IMG/VR virus record: IMGVR_UViG_3300002307_002134 | Coordinates: 1 to 64,000 of that record | Strand: one strand, 5' to 3' | Origin: a virus | DNA length: 64,000 bases | In this document: one piece after another, positions 8,152 to 20,322 of the stretch | Numbering within the stretch: position 1 is the first letter of the stretch | How the letters are laid out: every line of letters starts with the position of its first letter | Position numbers and translations under genes: made by a program | Notes under the pieces: model-generated | Seen by the model: the letters and a program-made list of their open reading frames with translations, nothing else | The model's database searches: none | Told to the model about the DNA's origin: nothing

Positions 8152-9024
8152 TTATTCATATATTTCTGGGTGTAGTTTACCATAAATTCTAATTATCTTT
8201 CCAGCAACAGCATTTGCTTCGTTTTCTATTTCACTACCATCAGCACCATCTATTTTTGGGTTTGTTAATCTACCATCTAAATTTTGTCTGTGATGTTGAA
8301 GTTCGTGAGCAATCGACCTAATAATATCAACTATGGCTCTGTCTTTTGCGTAAACAACCAAATAACCATTTGTGCTATAATATGCTGTTGTTGTTAGGTC
8401 TGGTGTTCTTTCATAAGCCAAAGCTACCTTGATGTCATCATCGATATCCAAGTATTTTTTAACAAAGTTAATGAAATCACCCATTACCTTAACATCTTTT
8501 TCTTTTTTTGTAAGAATTCTCTCATTAAGAGATTCTTTTTTTGGTGAATTATCGTGACCACATTCGTGACAAACATACAAGTCTTTTTTATCTGATTCAG
8601 ATTCTTTCCAATGCCATCCACACTCGGTACATGTTATGGTTTTATCCAAGGCTTCTCTAAGAAGCGATTTAATCATTGGTTTTAGGTTTTCTTTCATTCC
8701 TGGTAATTTTGGGTATCTAATCATTGTATCTCTGAATTCAAAATTTTTATTGTGACCTTTATTCATTTTGAAACCAAATTTTTTATAAAATTGTACTAAT
8801 CTATTAACATTTCCACCAAAATCGCTAGAAGGTGTTAAAGCTATTATTTGTCCATGTTCATCTGCATATCTAACCAAATCTTCCATTAAACTACTACCAA
8901 TACCAGTATTTCTAATTTCTGGATTAATAATAATCCTAGAAAGTATAAGGCTAGTTTTGGTTTCATATATATCCAAAGCTTTTAAGACTTCTCCGTATTT
9001 ATTTTTTAATATGTCTTCTATCAT
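8152..9024 (-). CDS. modular protein: GNAT acetyltransferase + Zn-ribbon + HExxH metallopeptidase-like domain
   Basis: RNTGIGS and FYKKFGF (GNAT); CTECG...CHECG; SIAHELQHHRQ...ENEANA. Confidence 0.75.
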   Translation of the reverse strand: MIEDILKNKYGEVLKALDIYETKTSLILSRIIINPEIRNTGIGSSLMEDLVRYADEHGQIIALTPSSDFGGNVNRLVQFYKKFGFKMNKGHNKNFEFRDTMIRYPKLPGMKENLKPMIKSLLREALDKTITCTECGWHWKESESDKKDLYVCHECGHDNSPKKESLNERILTKKEKDVKVMGDFINFVKKYLDIDDDIKVALAYERTPDLTTTAYYSTNGYLVVYAKDRAIVDIIRSIAHELQHHRQNLDGRLTNPKIDGADGSEIENEANAVAGKIIRIYGKLHPEIYE

Positions 9025-9036
9025 AGTTATAAATAT

Positions 9037-9067
9037 AAAAAAACCCACAAAAAATTGTGGGCTTTTT
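9037..9067 (-). terminator. terminator downstream of the clpC C-half
   Basis: cccacaa-aaaa-ttgtggg hairpin flanked by A/T runs. Confidence 0.6.
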
Positions 9068-9068
9068 A

Positions 9069-10520
9069 TTATTTTGATTTTGTTTTGGTAGTTTTAATTG
9101 TGATTTCTTCTTTTTCAGTATCAAATCCGATGTTTATTGTGTCACCTTCCTTAATGTTGTCGTTAAGAATCTCATCGGCCACAGCATCTTCAATATAATG
9201 TTGAATGGTTCTAACTAGAGGTCTAGCACCATATGTTTCATCGTAACCTTGTTTTGCCAAAAAATCCACAGCTTCTTTAGAAATTTTTAGTTTAAAATTC
9301 ATTTCCGATAAACGTTTTTCAAGTTTTGCAACTTCAAGATAAATAATTTTATGAATATCTTCTTGAGTAAGGCCTCTAAAGATAATTGCTTCATCAATAC
9401 GGTTAAGGAATTCTGGTCTAAATTTCTTTTTAAGTGCTTTTTCAATGATATCACGAGCTTTATTTTCTTCATTTACAATACTAGCAGCTGTTTCAAAACC
9501 CATATTCTTGCCAAATGAATTTACTTCTCTTACACCAATGTTTGAGGTAAGGATAATCAAAGCATTTTTAAAGTTTACCTTGCGTCCCAAACCATCAGTT
9601 AATTGACCTTCATCCAACAATTGCAATAATAGATTGAACACATCTTCGTGTGCCTTTTCAATTTCATCAAATAAGATAACACAATGTGGTTTTCTTCTAA
9701 CCTTTTCAGTCAATTGACCACCTTGGTCATAACCAACATATCCTGGTGGTGGTCCAATAAGTCTTGATACTGTATGTTTTTCCATGTATTCAGACATATC
9801 CATTCTAATTAGTGCATCTGAATCACCGAATACTTGTTCAGCTAGTAATTTAGCCAACATTGTGTTGTGTGATAAAATTCCATTGGTATAATATCTTCTA
9901 TTGGACCCTTCTTTTAATTCAAGGTCATACATAACTTCTTCATAACCTAAATTTGTAACAGAGGTAACTTCAGATAAAGGAGTATCTAATTTTTCGTGAA
10001 AAAAACTATTATCTTCCGTTACACCAAATTCACCGATAAAAATTTTATCACCAGTTACTAAATTTTTAACAAAAACCTCTTCCATTTGTTCGTTGAATAC
10101 AAAATGATTATCAGCACATTTAAGCTCTTTTCCATCATTTAATTTAAGGTGATATACTTCATATGGTATTGTCTCATGCAATGCTTCTATATCAATAAAA
10201 CCATCATCAGTTAAAACTTCATAGTCTGATATTTTGGTTGTCTTAGTAATCTTTTTTAACGATTCTAATTCGTGTTTATCAAATAATAAAACATTATTTG
10301 ATTTATCAACTCTTTTTTTAATTTCTTCTAGTCTGTTTAATAAATTATAAAAACCATTCATTTCGAATAAATTATAATCTAATATTTCAATTCTATCAGA
10401 ATATGAATTATTATATTTACATTTAACCCCAGATGGTTTAAACTCTAATGTTGTCACACTAACAGGTATTGAACCTAAATCTAAGTAATAGGTTTCATTT
10501 AATTTAATCTCTTTTTTCAT
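9069..10520 (-). CDS. clpC: split-intein C-fragment (aa 1-219) fused to the ClpC C-terminal extein (NBD2)
   Basis: Intein block B CADNHF, block F VMYDL, block G GILSHN|T; then ClpC NBD2 motifs RMDMSEYMEKH, LIGPPPGYVGY, LFDEIEKAH, RPEFLNRID, GARPL. Confidence 0.92.
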   Translation of the reverse strand: MKKEIKLNETYYLDLGSIPVSVTTLEFKPSGVKCKYNNSYSDRIEILDYNLFEMNGFYNLLNRLEEIKKRVDKSNNVLLFDKHELESLKKITKTTKISDYEVLTDDGFIDIEALHETIPYEVYHLKLNDGKELKCADNHFVFNEQMEEVFVKNLVTGDKIFIGEFGVTEDNSFFHEKLDTPLSEVTSVTNLGYEEVMYDLELKEGSNRRYYTNGILSHNTMLAKLLAEQVFGDSDALIRMDMSEYMEKHTVSRLIGPPPGYVGYDQGGQLTEKVRRKPHCVILFDEIEKAHEDVFNLLLQLLDEGQLTDGLGRKVNFKNALIILTSNIGVREVNSFGKNMGFETAASIVNEENKARDIIEKALKKKFRPEFLNRIDEAIIFRGLTQEDIHKIIYLEVAKLEKRLSEMNFKLKISKEAVDFLAKQGYDETYGARPLVRTIQHYIEDAVADEILNDNIKEGDTINIGFDTEKEEITIKTTKTKSK

Positions 10521-11741
10521 TTATTTTGTTTTTAAAAAATTTATACATTTATTTATTATTTCTTGTTTATTCCCCCACCTGTATTCCGAATCCCATATTA
10601 CAATAACTTCAAAACCGTTTTTAATTGCAATATCTAATTTTCGTTTATCTTTACCCCACATATCTTGTGCTGTAATATTTTTTCTAAAAGGATGTGGATA
10701 ATCAGTAGAATTATATTTTTTTGGGTTTCCATGATACATATCACCATGAAATTCAATTATTTTTTTATTAATAGTATCAGTAAAATCATATAACCAAACA
10801 CCACCTTCTTCTTTCTCTAATTTAAATTCTTTATTATGTGTGGCAAAATAAATTTTATCTTTTTCACTAATATCGTAACTTTCCAATAGTTTATAAAACA
10901 ATTCTTGAGAAATTTTAGAATATCCAATCACCACATTACCATTGTTTAATAATGAATTTAACCATTTGTTTTGTCTTTCAGTAAAACGTTTTTTACCGTT
11001 TTCTTCACCATATTTTAAAATACATTTTTCAAGACTAAATGTTGATTGGTGTTCGGACACATTTTGTTTCGCTTCTTCTTCTGTATGTCCCTTATTAACC
11101 CAATATTCAACATTTGATGGTATTAATCTTTTTTCAAAATCAACTTGTTTGGCTGATTTTTTTTGGTTTTTACTAATAATATCTTTTGCCTCATTTTCAG
11201 AATGACCCTTATTAACCCAAAAATCGGAATTTGTTGGTGTTAGACAAATACGTTTAATTTCTTCTTCACTGTAACCTTTATCGACTAACATTTGTTTTGA
11301 TTTACCATGGTAGATTTTAACACATTTAGATGATTTTTGTTGTTGTTTAGAAATTTCATCGATAGCTTCTTCTTTAGTGCAACCTTTATTAATCCAATAT
11401 TCTTCACATAAACGGTTTCTTTGTTTTAATTCTTTATTACGTTTATTAATTTCACCTAAAGCGTTTTCTTCTAACCAACCACGTTCAATGAAATACTCTA
11501 TATTACCCCATTTTTTAGTTTTAAAACCATAATTTTTAACCAACCAACCACGCATCAACGATAATGAAACAACACCTTCTTGTTCTTCTAATTTAACCAT
11601 CAATGATTCAATTTCTTTTTTAATTGTTTCATTATCATAGCGTATGTTTTTATCTAACATTAAAACATGATTCTTAAATATTTCTAAATTTGGAAACACT
11701 TCATTTACCTCTTTTATACCTTTACTTGTTTTTATCTTCAT
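10521..11741 (-). CDS. free-standing Vsr/DUF559-like homing endonuclease
   Basis: Repeated YW(I/V)NKG-x-x-EEEA helical units and a C-terminal YDF...IIEFHGDMYHG...IVIWDSE nuclease domain; lies between the two split-intein halves. Confidence 0.8.
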   Translation of the reverse strand: MKIKTSKGIKEVNEVFPNLEIFKNHVLMLDKNIRYDNETIKKEIESLMVKLEEQEGVVSLSLMRGWLVKNYGFKTKKWGNIEYFIERGWLEENALGEINKRNKELKQRNRLCEEYWINKGCTKEEAIDEISKQQQKSSKCVKIYHGKSKQMLVDKGYSEEEIKRICLTPTNSDFWVNKGHSENEAKDIISKNQKKSAKQVDFEKRLIPSNVEYWVNKGHTEEEAKQNVSEHQSTFSLEKCILKYGEENGKKRFTERQNKWLNSLLNNGNVVIGYSKISQELFYKLLESYDISEKDKIYFATHNKEFKLEKEEGGVWLYDFTDTINKKIIEFHGDMYHGNPKKYNSTDYPHPFRKNITAQDMWGKDKRKLDIAIKNGFEVIVIWDSEYRWGNKQEIINKCINFLKTK

Positions 11742-11787
11742 AATATCTATTTTATAATAAATATCACGAAGTTTTAAAAAGTTCGGA

Positions 11788-13596
11788 CTAATTGGTGTTG
11801 GGTACGATATTTTTTATATTAATCGTTTTAATCTCACCAGTTACCTTGTTTCTAACAGTAATTTCTGTATCACCACAAATACATTTACCAACACCAGTAG
11901 GACCTAAGAATATAAATGAACCAACAGGTTTGTTTTTATCTTTGATACCGATACGATTACGTTTGATGGCTTTGACAACTTTGCTAACCGCAGCATCTTG
12001 ACCGATAACTTTACCCATAAGTTCTTTGTCCATATTCATAAGACGTTTGCTTTCTTGTGTGGAGATTTTGGTCAGTGGGATACCAGTCATCATAGACACA
12101 ACTTCAGAAATAAGTTCGACACCAACTTCTGTTGTTTTCTTCTCAAACCTATCATTCCATTTATCCATAGCGGTTTGCAACTGTTCAATAACTTTTTTTT
12201 CTTCATCTCTAAGTTTTGCGGCTTCTTCGTATTTTTGTTTGATAACAACTTCTTTTTTTCTTTCGTTAATTTCAAGTTTTTTAATTTCAAGTTGTTTAAT
12301 TTCTTCTGGTTTTTCAAAATTTACATTAGTGGTGGCACCAGCCTCATCCATTACATCAATAGCTTTATCTGGCATACTTCTTTCCATAATATAACGGTCA
12401 GCCAATTTAACACATTCATCAATAGCTTCTTCAGTATATTTTACCTTATGATGTTTTTCATATTTTTCTTTAATGTTCATAAGAATAATCTTAGTTTCTT
12501 CAAGGGTTGGTTCTTCAATCAATACTTGTTGAAAACGTCTTGTTAAAGCACCATCTTTTTCAATATTTTCACGATATTCATCAAGAGTTGTCGCTCCAAT
12601 AATTTGAATTTCACCACGTGCCAACGCTGGTTTAAAGATATTTGATGCGTCCAATGAACCAGACGCATTACCAGCACCAACAATTGTATGTAATTCATCA
12701 ATAAATAAAATAATATCGGGATTTGCTTTACATTCTTCTAAAACAGCTTTCATCCTTTCTTCAAATTGACCACGATATTTGGTTCCAGCTACCAATGAAG
12801 CTAAATCCAAAGTAAATATTCTTTTATTAACCAGTGTTCTAGGTGCATTGCCATCTTTTATAAGTTGGGCTAACCCTTCTACTATGGAGGTTTTTCCCAC
12901 GCCAGGTTCACCAATCAATATTGGATTGTTCTTTTTTCTTCGTGATAGTATTTGAGATACACGTTTTATTTCAATTGTTCTACCAACTACAGGGTCTATT
13001 TCACCGTTATCAACAGCTTTTGAAACATCTCTACAAAAATTATCCAACACAGGTGTTTTATTTTTTCCGTCACCTTGTTTTAATTTACGTTTAAATGATT
13101 CTTGGTCATCATTTACTTCATCATTTTCATAAGCACTATTACTAAAATTTTCTCTCATCCTATTCATTTCTTTTTTAAAACTATTGTAATTTACACCATA
13201 AAACTCATTAATAATTTTAGTCGATGGTAATTTTTTTAATAAAATTGATAACATGATATGAGTAGTATCAATCATATTATCATCCATTTTTTCACATTCT
13301 TTATCTAAATCTTTGATAACCAATTTGGTTTCTTCAGAAAAAGGAAGTTTTGCTTTTGATGAATTAGTAACCCTAGGTGTTAAGTCGTTTTGTCTTATAT
13401 ATTCAGCTATTCTGTCATATAATTCTGTGGTATTTACGTTTAGTCTTTTAAGAACGTCAACGCATTCATTATCGTCATCTGACAAAATAGACATTACTAT
13501 ATGTTCTGGCCTAACTTTAACATCATCAAAAGATTTAGCCTCTTTCATTGATTGACTAATTATCAATTTTACTTTTGGGTAAATCTCTCTATTCAT
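11788..13596 (-). CDS. clpC: ClpC N-terminal extein (Clp-N, NBD1, UVR) fused to a 31-aa split-intein N-fragment
   Basis: GEPGVGKT, LFIDELH, PDKAIDVMDEAG, UVR YEEAAKLRD; ends in FLGPTGVGK|CICGDTEITVRNKVTGEIKTINIKNIVPNTN*. Confidence 0.92.
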   Translation of the reverse strand: MNREIYPKVKLIISQSMKEAKSFDDVKVRPEHIVMSILSDDDNECVDVLKRLNVNTTELYDRIAEYIRQNDLTPRVTNSSKAKLPFSEETKLVIKDLDKECEKMDDNMIDTTHIMLSILLKKLPSTKIINEFYGVNYNSFKKEMNRMRENFSNSAYENDEVNDDQESFKRKLKQGDGKNKTPVLDNFCRDVSKAVDNGEIDPVVGRTIEIKRVSQILSRRKKNNPILIGEPGVGKTSIVEGLAQLIKDGNAPRTLVNKRIFTLDLASLVAGTKYRGQFEERMKAVLEECKANPDIILFIDELHTIVGAGNASGSLDASNIFKPALARGEIQIIGATTLDEYRENIEKDGALTRRFQQVLIEEPTLEETKIILMNIKEKYEKHHKVKYTEEAIDECVKLADRYIMERSMPDKAIDVMDEAGATTNVNFEKPEEIKQLEIKKLEINERKKEVVIKQKYEEAAKLRDEEKKVIEQLQTAMDKWNDRFEKKTTEVGVELISEVVSMMTGIPLTKISTQESKRLMNMDKELMGKVIGQDAAVSKVVKAIKRNRIGIKDKNKPVGSFIFLGPTGVGKCICGDTEITVRNKVTGEIKTINIKNIVPNTN

Positions 13597-13610
13597 AGAC
13601 TTAATTTATA

Positions 13611-13676
13611 CAAAGTTACTACATTATTTTTAATTCTGCAAGAACTTGATTCTTTAAATAAATATTAGTATCTTTG
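13611..13676. promoter_or_regulatory. divergent Bacteroidota-type sigma-A promoters
   Basis: TAACTTTG on the minus strand (13611-13618) before clpC and TATCTTTG on the plus strand (13669-13676) before 13692; both match the -7 element TAnnTTTG. Confidence 0.6.
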
Positions 13677-13691
13677 TACAAAAAGTAAATT

Positions 13692-13925
13692 ATGGTTACA
13701 AATACAGAACCTAAATTTAGTAAGGTTGAGTTGTTAATTAAATCTAAAAGTTCTGACTTGCCATCCACATTAAATATAAGTTTTGAAAACTGTGGTTTTA
13801 TGATAACTGGTGATTATATTGTAATAATAATAGACGAAAAAAACGAAGATAACAATACTGTAACTAGTACAGGAAAAATTTTTTCTTTAAAAGAAATAAC
13901 AGCATATAAAACACATTTAAAATAA
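13692..13925 (+). CDS. hypothetical protein
   Basis: 77-aa ORF directly after a promoter. Confidence 0.65.
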   Translation: MVTNTEPKFSKVELLIKSKSSDLPSTLNISFENCGFMITGDYIVIIIDEKNEDNNTVTSTGKIFSLKEITAYKTHLK

Positions 13926-13949
13926 TAATGTATAAAAAATAAAATAAAC

Positions 13950-14429
13950 ATGATTTTAAAAAAACAAGAAAAAAACGGAAAAATAAAAGCGATGTATTCT
14001 TCTTCAACGGTTTGTGCTTCGATATTTGACACGGTAACAAGAGACTTAATTGTTATTTTTAACAATGGAGGACAATACAAATACCCTAGTGTTGAATTGA
14101 CTGATTACACAAGATTTGAGACATCTGATAGCAATGGTTCAACGTTCAACACTTACATCAAGAAAAAATATACCAATTTTGAAAAATTAAATAATCTTGA
14201 TGAAAATACTACCAAGTCTATTTTAAAAGAAGTTGATGACCTAAAATCAGCTGAAGAAAAAGCTTCAACTGAAGGTGCCGCAAAATCTATGATGGAAATA
14301 ATGGCAATTATGGTTGCAAACTACATAAGCACTGGAAACGTTGATAACGGTATACTTCGTAAATTGGAAAGCAAGATTGCCGCTTATGATAAAATAATTA
14401 GTCCTCAAGTAGAAACAGAAGAAGCTTAA
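13950..14429 (+). CDS. KTSC-domain protein
   Basis: SSTVCASIFD...LIVIFNNGGQYKYPSV...F...S-x-G-x-x-FN-x-x-IK pattern. Confidence 0.75.
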   Translation: MILKKQEKNGKIKAMYSSSTVCASIFDTVTRDLIVIFNNGGQYKYPSVELTDYTRFETSDSNGSTFNTYIKKKYTNFEKLNNLDENTTKSILKEVDDLKSAEEKASTEGAAKSMMEIMAIMVANYISTGNVDNGILRKLESKIAAYDKIISPQVETEEA

Positions 14430-14437
14430 TAAATTAA

Positions 14438-14547
14438 TATTAGATGATGGAATTGGAAGACATACCCTACTGTCTCTAGGGTGAGGATACACTGATAAAC
14501 CTTAAAAAGCTAAAGTCCTCTTGGAGGTTCGAGTCCTTCTCTAATAG
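14438..14547 (+). tRNA. atypical tRNA / tRNA-like RNA with GUC (Asp) anticodon and a long variable arm
   Basis: Acceptor TATTAGA/TCTAATA with G73; D-loop GGAATTGGAAGA; anticodon stem CCCTA/TAGGG with loop CTGTCTC; GAGGA/TCCTC variable stem; T-arm GGAGG-TTCGAGT-CCTTC. Confidence 0.7.
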
Positions 14548-14584
14548 CAATTATAGTATATAACATAAAAAATATTAATTAAAT

Positions 14585-15355
14585 ATGAACAACAAAAAAT
14601 TATTAATTACATTGATATTATCAACAATAATATTAAACGTCTTTTCTCAAAATGTTGGTATCAACACAAATTCTCCAAACACAACATTAGATGTAAATGG
14701 TCAAGCAACTATAAGAGGCCTTGCTGGGAGTTCAGGTAGTTATATAAAAGTTGATGCTAATGGAAAACTTTTAATTGCATCTGCCCCATCTAATGGAGTT
14801 ACAGGACCAACAGGTGTTACAGGACCAACAGGTGTTACAGGACCAACAGGTGTTACAGGACCAACAGGTGTTACAGGACCAACAGGTGTTACAGGACCAA
14901 CAGGAGCTACAGGAACAGCAGGACAATCGGGTACAACGGTTTATGGTTCTTCACAATTATCTGTTACTACAAGCACTACTTCGTTTACGTTAATTCCTGG
15001 ATTAACAACCACATTAACTATTCCGTCAAGTTCTTTTGTTTATATTTCTACTGATGGTGGTTTTTATACTAATTCATCAACAACAAATAGTTCAGTTATT
15101 GATGTGGCCGTTAAAATAGATGGTACATTATTAACTAATGGTGGTTATGCTAGGTTAACTTCAACTAACCCATCTAGTTATACAGTAGGAAACTATGGAA
15201 CAAGATGGGGTATATCTTTTTATACTACTTTATCAGCTGGGTCACACACAATAACAGTTAATGCTGTATGGGTGGCTGGGGTAAGTTGTCAAGTATCTGG
15301 CAGTAATACATCTGCAACTCAAGGAGAATTAACAGTTGTAATTATAAAACAATAA
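14585..15355 (+). CDS. secreted collagen-repeat protein, Bacteroidota type
   Basis: Sec signal peptide, [18 protein letters not shown] motif, (GVTGPT)x6 collagen repeat, beta-rich C-terminal domain. Confidence 0.8.
14795..14902 (+). repeat. 18-bp tandem repeat x6 encoding collagen G-X-Y
   Basis: unit ggtgttacaggaccaaca. Confidence 0.95.
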
Positions 15356-15359
15356 ATTT

Positions 15360-16379
15360 ATGAAAAAGAAACTATTATTATTATTTTTGATTATATCTAA
15401 AATAGTCGCAAGTCAATCAATACATTTTGATAATAATTCTTATATTTCTTTAAAATCTGGTGGTTATGTTTTTATTAAAGACACTAGTGTAAATGCTATA
15501 CAAACATTGGGAGGTGGTTTTTTTATACCCGATACTTTAAACGGATATGTTGAGTGGGAAGTTGAAAATAATAAAGGAAAATATACAGTTCCTTACTTAT
15601 CATATGATAATTTATATTTTCCAATTTCTTTAAATATTAGTGCTGCTGGTTTGGGTACTAGTATAAAATTTTTAACAATTGATACATTTATAAACCGTAC
15701 TAATCAATATTACAACACTATTAGTATTGGCCGTTATTGGAATATAAACCTATCTAATTACATAACAAAACCACAAGGTACTGTAACATTAAAATACGAT
15801 ACAACAAGATATCCTTATTCAAGTGTTTATTTAAATTATTATAATTCAAGTAATGTTTGGGAACAGTTATACCTAAACGCATATACATCTGGTACAGCTA
15901 GTTTTGTATTAGACACGACCAAAACTAATGTTAGATTAACTCTTCTTAACACAAATTTTGGATTACCAATACAATTGGTATATTTTAAAGGTGAAGCTAT
16001 AGAAAACAAATACTCTCATTTATATTGGCAAACCGCTACCGAAACAAATAATAAAGGTTTTATAATTGAAAAAAGTAAAAACGCTTTAGATTTTGACAGT
16101 ATTGGATGGGTTGATGGCCAGAATAATTCTAATTGGTATAACGAATATCAATTCAATGATTACGATATTAAACCAAATAACACTTATTATTATCGTTTAA
16201 AACAAATAGATTTTAACAATGAATATAGTTACGTACATATTATTTATATAAAGTTTATATCTACGCCAGAAGTTATAGAATATTATAATATATTAGGTCA
16301 AAGAATATACACAATTAACAACGCTGGTTTTTATATTAAAGTTAGCAATACCAAATCAAAATTATTTATTAAAATATAA
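15360..16379 (+). CDS. secreted protein with a T9SS-type C-terminal sorting-like domain
   Basis: Signal peptide; LPIQLVYFKGE...LYWQTATETNNKGFIIEKS...YYRLKQIDF Ig-like domain; tail YYNILGQRI...GFYIKV...KLFIKI. Confidence 0.75.
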   Translation: MKKKLLLLFLIISKIVASQSIHFDNNSYISLKSGGYVFIKDTSVNAIQTLGGGFFIPDTLNGYVEWEVENNKGKYTVPYLSYDNLYFPISLNISAAGLGTSIKFLTIDTFINRTNQYYNTISIGRYWNINLSNYITKPQGTVTLKYDTTRYPYSSVYLNYYNSSNVWEQLYLNAYTSGTASFVLDTTKTNVRLTLLNTNFGLPIQLVYFKGEAIENKYSHLYWQTATETNNKGFIIEKSKNALDFDSIGWVDGQNNSNWYNEYQFNDYDIKPNNTYYYRLKQIDFNNEYSYVHIIYIKFISTPEVIEYYNILGQRIYTINNAGFYIKVSNTKSKLFIKI

Positions 16380-16382
16380 ATT

Positions 16383-16577
16383 ATGAACAAAGAACAATTA
16401 ATAGGGGCAACTTTTGAATTAGACCTTGGGTTATTACATCCAGTTTCAGTTGAGGTAATTGATTTAACTGATTATGTTGTTACTGTAAAGTATAAGAATT
16501 CAACACCCAATAGAATTGAAGAATTTAGTATATTTGGTTTTAAAAAGTTAACTGGGATTAAAATAGATAAAATATGA
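16383..16577 (+). CDS. small hypothetical protein homologous to the N-terminus of the ClpC IntC protein
   Basis: LDLG..PVSV...V..KY.NS...RIE shared with aa 1-55 of 9069..10520. Confidence 0.7.
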   Translation: MNKEQLIGATFELDLGLLHPVSVEVIDLTDYVVTVKYKNSTPNRIEEFSIFGFKKLTGIKIDKI

Positions 16578-16611
16578 ATAAAATAGATAAAATATGAATA
16601 AAATAGATAAA
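16559..16611 (+). repeat. 20-bp tandem repeat (~2.6 copies) spanning the thyA start
   Basis: unit taaaatagataaaatatgaa. Confidence 0.9.
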
Positions 16612-16920
16612 CAATATACTGACCTACTTCAAGATATTCTTGATAATGGTGTTAAAAAATCTGATAGAACAGGTACAGGAACCATGTCAGTATTTGGAAG
16701 ACAAATTCGTCACAAAATGAGTGATGGTTTTCCTTTACTTACAACCAAAAAAATGGCTTGGAAACAAATTGTAACAGAACTTTTATGGTTTTTGCGTGGT
16801 GATACTAATATTAAATATTTGGTTGATAATGATTGTCATATTTGGGATGGTGATTGTTATAAGAATTATTTAATAGAATGTGAGAAATTAAATAACATAA
16901 ACAAAAATAAAAAAGAATGA
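16594..16920 (+). CDS. thyA: thymidylate synthase, N-terminal fragment
   Basis: [31 protein letters not shown]. Confidence 0.9.
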
Positions 16921-17419
16921 AAGTAAAAAAAGAAGATTTACATGAATCTGGTAGACCATTAAGTCAATCAGAATTTATTGAACGGGTTAAAAATGATGAG
17001 GAATTTGCTAAACGTTTTGGTGATTTAGGACCTATTTATGGTTCTGGTTGGCGAAATTTCGAAGGTATTGACCAAATAACTGAATTAATACATGGGTTAA
17101 AAACTAACCCAGATTCTAGAAGACTTAGAGTTTCTGCGTGGCAACCACATAAACTTAAAGATATGGTACTCCCACCTTGCCACACTGATTTTCAACTTTA
17201 TACAAGAGAGTTGAGTAATGATGAAATTATTAACTATTATTATAAGAATATTAAACCAAATAGTAAATGGAAAAAAGATGACAATGGTAAATATTTTTAT
17301 TTTATTGAATCTGATGACGAAAATTATTGGGTTGAACATTCTACTTCTGATATAATATTTGGTATGAAACCGTTATGTCCAACTAGGGCCATCTCATTGA
17401 TGTGGAGTCAACGTTCCGT
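16917..17419 (+). CDS. thyA: thymidylate synthase, second fragment, exon 1
   Basis: [19 protein letters not shown] (catalytic Cys), QRSV up to the intron. Confidence 0.9.
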
Positions 17420-18437
17420 AAACGAAAAATCTGCGGCTTAACATAGTAATATGTTTCGAAAAATTCATCTAAACGGGGAATACCTAAAGAAGTCATGTTG
17501 TAGACAATCCCGTGCTAAATTTTATGATGATACCGTTTTAGGGTTACTTTTTAATTTATCTACATATTTATAATAAAAAACATTATGGGATACATTTATA
17601 AAATTATTAATTTAGAAACAAACAAATACTATTTAGGTAGTACTAAAGAAATAAAAAAAAAAGAACTTTAAAACATTTTAACGAACTTAGAAAAAATAAA
17701 CACCATTGTATTCATTTACAAAGAGCGTTTAATAAATACGGTGAAGATAATTTTAAATTAGAAATTATTTTAGAATGTGAAAACTATAAAGATAAAGAAC
17801 AAGAATTATTAGATTCAATATCTTTTTATGAATTGTACAATGTTTCAAAAAGTGCTAGTGGTGGTGATTTAATATCTAACCACCCAAATAAAGTTAATAT
17901 AATCAAAAAAGCGATTGAAAACCTTAGAAAGGCACCTAAACAAGAACCAAGATTTAAAAGCGATAACCCTAATTGGAAAGGTGGTAAAACTTTTTGTGAA
18001 TGTGGTTCTAGAATAGATAGTGTGACAAAAAAATGTATAAAATGTTTAGATAGAAGTGGTGAAAAGAACCCATTTTTTAATAAACAACATTCACAAGTAA
18101 CCAAAAAAATTTTAAGTGAGAAAAGAACTGGGAAATATAATGGTAACCAAGAAAAAATAGTAATTGTTAACGATGAAGAGTTTAAATCCTTATCAGAATG
18201 TGCTAGAGTCTTCAACGTTAAACCAGCAACAATTTTGAACCGAATTAAAAGTGTTAATTACCCAGATTATCAATATAAATAAATGCCTAACGACTATCCC
18301 GACAGGGAGTACACTCAAGTGAGTGGAAAAGATGAAAACCCAAATATTTGGGTTGTGATATAGTCTAATCTTTATGGAAACATAAAGAAGTTCATAAGAG
18401 AACTGCATAAGATTAACAACCTTATGTGAATATAGTG
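17420..18437 (+). mobile_element. group I self-splicing intron in thyA
   Basis: P1 exon CCGU pairs with IGS GCGG (U.G wobble); P10 ATCT pairs with 3' exon AGAT; P7 GACTAT/ATAGTC; terminal G at 18437; splicing restores QRSV-DTFLGLPFNIASY. Confidence 0.93.
17585..18282 (+). CDS. intron-encoded GIY-YIG homing endonuclease, frameshifted at A10 (17653-17662)
   Basis: MGYIYKIINLETNKYYLGST in frame 0; continues in the -1 frame HLQRAFNKYGEDNF...E...YN, followed by NUMOD-like NPFFNKQHS and HTH tail. Confidence 0.85.
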
Positions 18438-18735
18438 AGATACATTTTTAGGTTTACCATTCAATATAGCCTCTTATGGATTATTATTAGAAATAATTGC
18501 AAAAGAAGTTAATATGGTTCCAGATGAACTAATTGGTAATCTTGGAGATGCTCACTTATATTTGAACCATATTGAACAAGCTAAAGAACAGATTAGTCGA
18601 GAACCATTTGAGCTGCCTAAATTAAATATTCATCCAGGCATGTTGGTTTATGAGTTGTCTAAATTAGACAAAGATATGTTTATTTTAGAAAACTATCAAT
18701 CACACCCAGCAATAAAAGCACCTCTATCAAATTAA
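18438..18735 (+). CDS. thyA: thymidylate synthase, exon 2
   Basis: DTFLGLPFNIASY, GDAHLYLNH, YQSHPAIKAPLS. Confidence 0.92.
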
Positions 18736-18759
18736 AAATAATAATTAAAAATATAAAAA

Positions 18760-18972
18760 ATGGAATACAAACTACGTGATTTTATTAATTATCCAAATTA
18801 TGATATAGCTTGGATAAGTTGGGAGACTTCTTCATCTTATGGTATAGTGAAAACTAATGAATGTTATACTGAAAAAGGTTGGTCAATTACCCCATTAGAG
18901 TTTGAATGGATACTTAAAAAAGATTTTAACTATCCAATAGTTGATTATGTAAGTAAATTTAAGAAAAAATAG
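18760..18972 (+). CDS. hypothetical protein
   Basis: 70-aa ORF followed by a terminator. Confidence 0.55.
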   Translation: MEYKLRDFINYPNYDIAWISWETSSSYGIVKTNECYTEKGWSITPLEFEWILKKDFNYPIVDYVSKFKKK

Positions 18973-18995
18973 TTTTTGATAATTTATTTGAATAA

Positions 18996-19023
18996 TAAAA
19001 AGCACTATAATAGTGCTTTTTTT
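18996..19023 (+). terminator. rho-independent terminator
   Basis: aaaaagcact-ataat-agtgcttttttt. Confidence 0.75.
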
Positions 19024-19058
19024 ATTTTTAAGCGATATTTATAATAAAACAAATAAAA

Positions 19059-19316
19059 ATGGCAAATATTACTGATGTTCATAGTATTATTGTTCCAGCT
19101 CAGTCAGCTAACTTGACAGCACATACGTACAATGAAATATATGGTGGTACATATGGGTGTACTATGGTGCTTAATGGGGTTACTATTGATGTAGCTTCTT
19201 CATCAAACATAAAGGTTTGGGTTAAATCAATAAGTGGTGGGACTGGTTGTTACCTATTGGGTGAAAAACAAAATGTTCTTCAAGGATTAACAAATGGTTA
19301 CTATTTGGGACAGTAA
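19059..19316 (+). CDS. hypothetical (probable virion) protein
   Basis: 85-aa beta-rich ORF after a TATTTATA motif. Confidence 0.65.
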   Translation: MANITDVHSIIVPAQSANLTAHTYNEIYGGTYGCTMVLNGVTIDVASSSNIKVWVKSISGGTGCYLLGEKQNVLQGLTNGYYLGQ

Positions 19317-19356
19317 CATATTTATATTAAAATAAACAAACACAAAAAGATATAAT

Positions 19357-20322
19357 ATGAAAATTAATAACAGAATAACTCCAGTTGGTCTTAAGGGGCA
19401 AGAAATAAACAAACGTATGAAAGAATTGATGGGTGTCAAACCTATCAACGAAAACCAATCTAAAGTTGTTGTTGAATTGACCAAAATGGGTCCAGACGGA
19501 AATGCTTATGCTATTATAAGAGAAAACCACGAATGGTATATTAAAAAATCAACCAAAACCTCTAATCTAGTTGCTGAAGACTTCAAATATATTGGAGGTT
19601 TGATGAACAAGAAGGATGAGGCTTACAATTCATATGCCAAAGCTATCAAGCATTTGAACCTTAAATTCAAGAGTCTAGCTGAAGTTTATAACTTTGAAGG
19701 CGAAATCAACGTATTTGTAAACGACAATCTTTTAACTGAAAACACGCCAATGGCTGGTGGTTTCTCTGAAATGAAAGGTAATGGTTTTACAGGTGAAGGT
19801 AACTTGGAAGAAAACAAACCTATGTGGGAAGAAGAAGACAAAGATAAAAACAACCCATGGGCTATTTGCACATCTAGTGTTGGTAGAGAAGACAAAGACA
19901 AATACGAAGCTTGCGTTAAAGACGTTAAGAAAAAAATGGGTATGGACGAAAGCATGACTGAAGAAGGTTGGGCTGAAGAGTGTTGGATGCGTGAAAACAT
20001 GACCGATGAAGAAAGAGCTATTGATGAAATGATTGATGGTTATCAATCTACTGATGATAATGAAAATCAAACATCAAATGATGACGCATATGGTAAAGCT
20101 TTTAATTCAATGGAAGAAGAAGGAATTGATGAAGAAATGACCGACAAACAAAAAAAGTTTGCAGCATTGGCACCGCCATATGATAACATCACTTATGCTG
20201 ATAAAATTGCTGGTGCAAAAAAAGGCGAAACAAAAGAATCAAAATTTAGCATTTCAGAAGGACTTAAAAACATTGACCAATTAATTGAGAACTTTACCGA
20301 AGGGTTAAAAAAAAAAGTCTAA
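19357..20322 (+). CDS. acidic head-associated protein, short form (N-terminal part of a frameshift fusion)
   Basis: 321 aa ending LKKKV* on an A10 run (20307-20316). Confidence 0.8.
   Translation: MKINNRITPVGLKGQEINKRMKELMGVKPINENQSKVVVELTKMGPDGNAYAIIRENHEWYIKKSTKTSNLVAEDFKYIGGLMNKKDEAYNSYAKAIKHLNLKFKSLAEVYNFEGEINVFVNDNLLTENTPMAGGFSEMKGNGFTGEGNLEENKPMWEEEDKDKNNPWAICTSSVGREDKDKYEACVKDVKKKMGMDESMTEEGWAEECWMRENMTDEERAIDEMIDGYQSTDDNENQTSNDDAYGKAFNSMEEEGIDEEMTDKQKKFAALAPPYDNITYADKIAGAKKGETKESKFSISEGLKNIDQLIENFTEGLKKKV

Follow-up and report, generated by a model that had tools for sequence, protein, structure and literature searches.

The stretch of viral DNA considered here, the first 64 kb (hereafter the window) of a single contig of 171,472 bp with about 30% G+C, raises the question of why one half of a split intein should start with a domain of separate origin. 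Three clustered open reading frames (ORFs) on the minus strand of the window encode, in this order, the first part of a ClpC protein with the N-terminal piece of the intein (IntN), a predicted endonuclease, and the C-terminal piece of the intein (IntC) with the remainder of ClpC. The IntC-bearing protein of 483 aa opens with about 58 residues that resemble the product of a 64-aa ORF (ORF64) elsewhere in the window. These residues were found to belong to a family of small phage proteins, to have been joined to IntC after the intein was split, and to be under purifying selection; they are probably a passenger that was tolerated because splicing would excise it. In what follows WIN denotes the locus of the window, L### the related loci and P#### the representatives of protein clusters.

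The first 57 residues of the 483-aa ORF occupy positions 10350..10520 on the minus strand, where the initial annotation had placed the segment, and the similarity to ORF64, drawn there by eye, is real. A BLASTP comparison of residues 1–95 of the IntC protein with ORF64 aligned residues 1–52 with 21 of 53 positions identical (40%; 58% positives; E 1e-8 for a single comparison), and the Smith-Waterman score of 80 compares with 22.8 ± 4.4 for 5000 shuffled controls (maximum 54, z = 13). When each copy was searched with tblastn against the 171,472-bp genome, the other copy was the only significant match (E 3e-5 and 9e-6; next best 0.13–0.33), and therefore the genome has exactly two copies. A profile of the two copies detected 79 cluster representatives at E ≤ 1e-3 among the 1.84 billion searched, so that the similarity reflects a real domain family. 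Chance similarity between IntC and ORF64 was ruled out by the z-score, the reciprocal best matches and this family of 79.

Members of the family are either free-standing proteins of 45–75 aa or form a domain at the N- or C-terminus of proteins of 100–260 aa. The family motif, L-D-L-G-S..P-V.V ... Y-(L/N)-N-S..G-R.E ... F over about 58 aa, is present in both copies, and the family hidden Markov model matches residues 1–59 of the IntC protein at E 5e-28 and ORF64 at E 5e-23. Neither copy was matched in Pfam or PHROGs, a word-indexed homolog search returned the query alone, the ESM Atlas returned unnamed viral clusters only (scores below 0.9), and a search for related loci with alignment A3 gave only two viral and six metagenome loci. 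The family of these domains of about 58 aa, with its two subtypes and about 75 cluster representatives, appears not to have been described before. It should also be noted that a BLAST extension matched P-S-G-V-K-C of the domain to the P-T-G-V-G-K-C of the P-loop and IntN; this match is considered coincidental, G-V-x-C being a feature of subtype A that also occurs in free-standing members.

The domain tree separated subtypes A and B at an SH-aLRT of 98. The IntC domain belongs to subtype A, which ends in ...Y-E-L-F-E-M-N-G-Y, and the closest relative found outside inteins is the N-terminal domain of a 146-aa protein (66% identity) from phage genomes of 429–462 kb. Subtype B, ending in ...E-F-S-I-x-D-F-E-Y-F, includes ORF64 and gp030 of Cellulophaga phage phi14:2, and the nearest relatives of ORF64 are P0129 at 61% identity and gp030 at 46%. 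The fused domain is 66% identical to P0122 and 40% identical to ORF64. A recent duplication of ORF64 into IntC was ruled out by these identities and by the different subfamilies; since the two copies are deep paralogs of subtypes A and B, the IntC domain is not a copy of ORF64. The suggestion in the initial annotation that IntC captured a small gene therefore stands in so far as its N-terminus is a domain found elsewhere as a small free-standing phage gene, but the donor was not ORF64. The gene of gp030 (L001 5001–5177; KC821624 10633..10809) sits in the sequence that interrupts PolB, a gene given in RefSeq as a join of two pieces. The 3' half of gp030 is overlapped by a match to the group I intron model RF00028 (L001 5045–5351), which covers the full model length at a sub-threshold 41.5 bits against the 50-bit gathering score; at gathering thresholds Rfam gave no match in the window, L001 or L002.

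ORF64 was modelled with AlphaFold from an alignment of 33 family members (pLDDT 87.5) as a fold of four strands followed by a C-terminal helix. Small barrels of the Tudor, KOW and SH3-like type came out as the best structural neighbours of this model, with Z-scores of 4.6–6.1 (best 7c9n_B, Z 6.1 over 51 residues, rmsd 2.2); the Foldseek E-values were 0.16 or above and no single barrel family stands out. There is no sequence similarity to these small beta-barrels, and the Z-scores are too low to tell kinship from a shared topology. An SH3/Tudor-like barrel is a plausible fold class for the family.

On the evidence of its sequence, clpC in the window is a fractured gene, with a class-1 intein in the Walker A loop of D2 that is split after about 31 residues (Table 1). 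The identical gene order was found in L004, L006, L008, L010, L014 and other relatives. The first residue of IntN is the Cys after GVGK (C-I-C-G-D-T-E-I), and the same Cys is found in the cis forms P0200 and P0201; the block B His lies in A-D-N-H, and the intein ends in S-H-N, followed by Thr220 as the +1 residue, so that the splicing residues are intact. Joining GVGK to Thr220 restores the Walker A sequence GPTGVGKT, which is also read in the uninterrupted Clp proteins of 830–870 aa encoded by dozens of related phage contigs (L024–L089), the intein-free alleles. IntN has 28–36 residues in the relatives, and blocks B, F and G all lie in IntC. IntC proper is colinear with the cis mini-intein of P0200, where the same lead-in directly follows the IntN-like part, and it reaches 159 aa because of this helical lead-in of about 35 aa. 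The Pfam family Intein_splicing was matched on residues 84–219 at E 2.3e-6 with 27.9 bits, under the gathering cut-off of 35.8, and the sequence matches of the IntC part in the PDB are the engineered Cat intein and the gp41-1 intein (best 6dsl_B, the Cat C fragment, E 4.6e-7). No DNA-level relative of window positions 9000–17600 was found in the phage collection.

The 406-aa ORF between the two halves is predicted to encode a Vsr-like homing endonuclease. Its AlphaFold model (pLDDT 80) consists of helical repeats and a C-terminal domain, and the top Foldseek probabilities were obtained for Vsr (1cw0_A, prob 1.00, TM to target 0.55; 1vsr, prob 1.00) and I-Bth0305I (3r3p, prob 0.99, TM to target 0.63, 21% identity), with E-values of only 0.03–0.15 because the query has several domains. 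The ORF matches phrog_22677 at 8.5e-28, and residues D319, E330, G333 and H337 are invariant across 20 homologs; homologs also occupy the same gap in the relatives. No Pfam match was found, and phmmer against the PDB gave no real match. The TAA stop codon of this gene directly abuts the ATG of the IntC passenger domain.

Table 1. Features of the fractured clpC locus and of ORF64 in the window, with the evidence for each
Feature	Position	Strand	Evidence and remarks
ClpC N-half (Clp_N, D1, start of D2)	11788..13596	-	602 aa; Pfam Clp_N, AAA, AAA_lid_9; alignment to cis-intein proteins P0200 and P0201
IntN, 31 aa (Cys1...PNTN)	11791..11883	-	Directly after Walker A GVGK; IntN tails of relatives compared
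Free-standing Vsr-like homing endonuclease gene (predicted), 406 aa	10521..11741	-	AlphaFold model and Foldseek; phrog_22677
IntC-bearing ORF, 483 aa	9069..10520	-	Intein_splicing, then AAA_2 and ClpB_D2-small (Pfam)
Passenger domain, aa 1-58 of the IntC protein	10347..10520	-	Subtype A; BLASTP, shuffles, profile search, family HMM, domain tree, dN/dS
Fusion junction, TTA codon (Leu61) in place of the ATG with which IntC ancestrally began	10338..10340	-	Codon-level comparison of loci
IntC proper, aa 61-219: helical lead-in (NRLEEIKK...KITKTTK), block B (ADNH), blocks F/G, end SHN	9864..10340	-	Pfam, colinearity with P0200, PDB matches
C-extein: ClpC D2 ATPase, Walker A Thr (+1) to end, own stop codon	9069..9863	-	AAA_2 3e-58, ClpB_D2-small 2e-26; intein-less homologs
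ORF64, free-standing subtype-B family member, directly upstream of thyA	16383..16577	+	BLASTP, shuffles, profile search, domain tree, AlphaFold model

That the domain was added after the intein had been split was indicated by a comparison of IntC N-termini. A search with residues 1–226 of the IntC protein gave 859 homologs, and the classes of N-terminal extension were counted in the 120 best clusters. Seventy-eight of these begin with M-(N/S/D)-R-I-E-E-I-K-K, equivalent to residue 61 onward here, at an ATG of their own, 13 carry this domain, and the remaining 29 carry other extensions of 28–335 aa that fall into at least five classes. P0200 (1013 aa, the protein of L079) is a ClpC in one piece whose cis mini-intein interrupts the same site; its 26 IntN-like residues run directly into the lead-in K-D-R-F-D-E-I-Q-K... 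and the domain is absent, so that the domain is ruled out as a part of the ancestral intein. The initial annotation had likewise proposed a gain after the split and had set as a test whether the segment is an ordinary insertion in cis-inteins; both this cis-intein and the 78 clusters lack it. In L003 clpC is split and has neither the endonuclease gene nor the domain.

The junction itself was visible at the codon level. In four independent contigs (WIN, L004, L008 and L010) the position of the ancestral start is a TTA codon, in frame with the end of the domain ahead of it, while the loci with canonical IntC (L003, L012, L013, L014, L016, L017, L018 and L022) have an ATG there, preceded by stop codons. 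The junction, K-P/N-L followed by N/S/D-R-I-E-E, is common to all 12 closely related fused proteins. P0026 (L006/L007) carries the domain on a different link of 106 aa and may therefore be a second fusion event. Because the old ATG of IntC is now TTA, translation would begin at the ATG of the domain, and the proposal that IntC gained its start through the fusion applies to this lineage in that sense; no donated start was needed, however, as the common form has its own ATG.

The fused domain is under purifying selection. For its 58 codons in the four loci sharing the junction dN/dS was 0.13–0.30, compared with 0.14–0.32 for the intein part and 0.08–0.24 for the extein. The estimates are rough, given so short a stretch and such high dS values. 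The residues conserved in the family and the N-terminus MKKEIKL are kept in the fused domains. Such selection suggests that the domain is still functional.

With regard to its history, the 12 fused domains form a single group within subtype A on the domain tree (SH-aLRT 84), and the proteins that bear them are scattered on a FastTree tree of the downstream intein and extein, on which the starred branches force at least nine changes. The best match of a domain-bearing protein is another domain-bearing one with a frequency of 0.60 in residues 61–95 and of about 0.2 further on, where chance would give 0.12. Together with the three endonuclease subtypes found beside the domain and the close relatives of the window's endonuclease found beside canonical IntC (both given below), these data are what a single fusion and later recombination of modules near the endonuclease site would leave.

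Other small genes appear to have met the same fate, and the fusion is, as far as the compared loci tell, one case of a general process at the IntC N-terminus. Assorted small ORFs lie between the endonuclease gene and IntC in L013, L014, L016, L018, L023, L082 and L102, and two of the extension classes also exist as free ORFs in this gap: ORF79 of L013, just upstream of canonical IntC, matches extension class E1 (E 3e-9), and ORF63 of L102 matches class E2 (86–90% identity). P0017 strings three modules (E2, E3 and E1) around the old start region. In L095 (4001–6464) thyA is preceded at a distance of 1.1 kb by a subtype-B gene and immediately by a 71-aa ORF homologous to E1 and to ORF79 of L013 (E 1e-9). 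As small genes of the same families occur near thyA both in L095 and in the window (ORF64), the donors look like ordinary genes from the small-gene pool of these phages, and those fused to IntC seem to come from a pool that is usually found around thyA.

The explanation that we consider probable is that a small gene upstream of IntC became fused to it, was tolerated as a passenger that splicing would excise, keeps a function of its own, and was later shuffled by recombination. In related phages the gap between the endonuclease gene and IntC collects small accessory ORFs, and in one lineage a gene of subtype A was joined in frame to IntC, the old ATG now being TTA. Translation would then start at the ATG of the domain, directly after the stop codon of the endonuclease gene. 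Trans-splicing would yield a normal ClpC of about 835 aa, the domain being released as a domain-IntC by-product bound to IntN. Since everything N-terminal of IntC belongs to the excised intein, passenger fusions may have been tolerated repeatedly. The domain would retain its function, and recombination, to which endonuclease-induced repair probably contributed, would have moved the fused module between diverged clp genes.

A number of points weigh against this explanation. No free subtype-A gene was found directly upstream of canonical IntC among about 110 loci, and in the loci examined no free subtype-A ORF lies between the endonuclease gene and canonical IntC, so that the direct precursor of the fusion is missing. 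In all domain-bearing loci with an upstream region the domain starts at the endonuclease stop codon or at most 15 nt from it, and this tight adjacency could reflect a functional link to the endonuclease and not a chance fusion. The dN/dS values were obtained from only 58 codons of an AT-rich genome with dS of 0.5–1.4, and the tree of intein and extein was made with FastTree on mosaic sequences. The function of the domain cannot be derived from a barrel fold. Translation from Met1 rather than Met54, the association of IntN with domain-IntC, trans-splicing, the completion of ClpC and the exit of the domain are all steps that we infer.

The adjacency of the two genes is also the basis of an alternative in which the domain would be a functional part of the homing endonuclease cassette, for example a cofactor coupled to it in translation or a partner in target-site binding, and would travel with the endonuclease, the fusion to IntC being secondary. 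The ATG of the domain abuts or overlaps the endonuclease stop codon in WIN, L004, L006/7, L008/15, L010/L111 and L110, and the domain is accompanied by three endonuclease subtypes, which are 84%, 62% and 41% identical to that of the window. A subtype-B member lies inside an intervening sequence, that of PolB in phi14:2, and P0139 (subtype A, cut off at the contig end; ENA sample ERZ1426828, 7479-bp contig) begins on the stop codon of an ORF that has 406 aa and no Pfam match, in a non-Clp context with a Hexapep gene upstream. If that ORF is the Vsr-like endonuclease, endonuclease and domain may move as a unit. This alternative is considered unlikely, as endonucleases 80–82% identical to that of the window occur with canonical IntC and no domain in L014, L016, L022 and L023, and as free subtype-A genes were found in ordinary small-gene arrays without an endonuclease in L093, L112, L113 and L114.

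A more speculative extension, which we regard as quite unlikely, would make the IntC N-terminus a natural launch pad onto which phages repeatedly load small accessory proteins (the barrel domain and at least five other modules), with their production, stability or release tied to intein assembly. In another version the passenger would act as a gate on trans-splicing, and ClpC would be completed only once infection has reached a certain stage, a natural case of conditional protein splicing.

The initial annotation had also suggested an adaptive role, with the domain acting as a docking or regulatory module and ORF64 modulating splicing in trans. Such a module, or one for solubility, could aid or gate the association of IntC with the 31-aa IntN. 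The domain is kept by purifying selection in the fused state and is located exactly at the end of IntC that must capture IntN, and atypical split inteins with a short IntN have been described as of low or medium affinity (PMC11766414), so that a helper is conceivable. Neither part of the proposal was supported here. The 78 of 120 clusters with canonical IntC and the cis form manage without the domain. IntN is nearly identical in WIN and L004, which have the domain, and in L003, L014, L016 and L022, which do not, and a second type of IntN is common to L008/L010 (with the domain) and L012/L017 (without). Unrelated modules take the same position on IntC in other lineages. ORF64 itself belongs to the other subfamily, whose genes are found in small-gene arrays of the ordinary kind, in many cases close to thyA and away from any intein. 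An adaptive docking, solubility or regulatory role is therefore judged very unlikely. Least probable of all is that the fusion is an artefact of ORF calling or a decaying remnant, with the real start of IntC at Met54 (in L-F-E-M-N-G, the only internal Met ahead of the intein core) and an untranslated or non-functional domain upstream: although certain of the other extension classes (P0022, P0029 and P0107) still have the canonical Met and could therefore be read-through ORF calls, the canonical ATG is lost in every gene of the present class, the dN/dS values and the retained family-invariant residues argue for a translated domain, 12 diverged proteins have almost the same N-terminus, MKKEIKLNETY, Met54 is conserved in free-standing family members too and is therefore a residue of the domain rather than a new start, and the A-rich context ahead of Met1 resembles that ahead of canonical IntC starts.

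Several further observations were made on this intein and on the surroundings of ORF64. In L012, L017, L021, L029/L032, L040 and L081 the same type of intein also interrupts the Walker A loop of Clp D1, often with a related gene for a Vsr-like endonuclease, so that clp is broken at two sites and encoded in three pieces in L012, L017 and L021; the window has no counterpart. P0201 (1386 aa) is a contiguous ClpC with an intein at the same D2 site and a LAGLIDADG match (PF14528), and P0202 (1129 aa) opens with a fragment resembling IntC that is attached at the Walker A site of D1; these forms indicate that cis, endonuclease-bearing and split versions of this intein coexist in nature. Directly downstream of ORF64 thyA is in pieces (16594..18282), with ORFs of 108 aa (16594..16920) and 174 aa (16917..17441) that share an ATGA overlap and both match Thymidylat_synt. 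By eye, a further ORF at 17833..18282 resembles the accessory region of a homing endonuclease, and Rfam at E ≤ 1 showed no group I intron in window positions 16300–19500. Two adjacent ORFs at 14585..16379 have N-termini resembling signal peptides; by eye, one contains collagen-like G-V-T-G-P-T repeats and the other has a C-terminal tail similar to a type IX secretion sorting domain, which would suggest a Bacteroidota host.

Fractured genes, Vsr-like endonucleases and atypical split sites are all already known. The arrangement in the window shares with the fractured genes of Dassa, London, Stoddard and Pietrokovski (2009, NAR 37:2560; PMC2677866) a host gene split by an intein, with IntN half, free-standing endonuclease gene (predicted to be Vsr-like here) and IntC half on one strand, an occurrence in phage and environmental DNA, and tight or overlapping stop/start junctions. 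A term search of that paper turned up neither Clp ATPases among the hosts nor IntC with extra N-terminal passenger domains, and the split in the window is near the N-terminus of the intein instead of at the usual endonuclease insertion point. Natural split inteins with a short IntN have been described as rare (PMC11766414). Inteins split in this atypical way, between blocks A and B with an IntN of about 15–40 aa, include AceL-TerL (25 aa), GOS-TerL (37 aa) and the engineered Cat-TerL (30 aa). The present intein resembles these in its short IntN with block A only, its long IntC with blocks B, F and G, and its phage or metagenomic origin, and differs in having ClpC rather than terminase as host, Thr at +1, an IntC of 159 aa and a further N-terminal domain of 58 aa that is predicted to be folded. 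As with homing endonuclease domains nested in inteins, a foreign and independently folding module lies inside the spliced-out element and, being removed after translation, would carry no cost to the host protein. Three differences are seen here: the module is no nuclease, it derives from small phage genes that stand free elsewhere, and its place is the free N-terminal end of IntC instead of the stretch between blocks B and F. In the literature searched, ClpC as a host, IntC with folded N-terminal passengers derived from small genes, and the domain family itself were not found.

In protein labelling, split inteins whose IntN is short are valued as tools, and the family described here adds hundreds of natural variants in ClpC, a host protein new to them, which include a cis form, the plain split form, the split form with an endonuclease gene and IntC with extra N-terminal domains. 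The recurrent and selected retention of folded passengers suggests that the N-terminus of IntC tolerates cargo, which may be of use in engineering for the attachment of tags, cages or solubility domains. A previously unnamed family of small phage proteins with two subtypes is also defined, and the recurrent fusions suggest a route by which foreign domains may enter inteins other than through the classic endonuclease insertion point.

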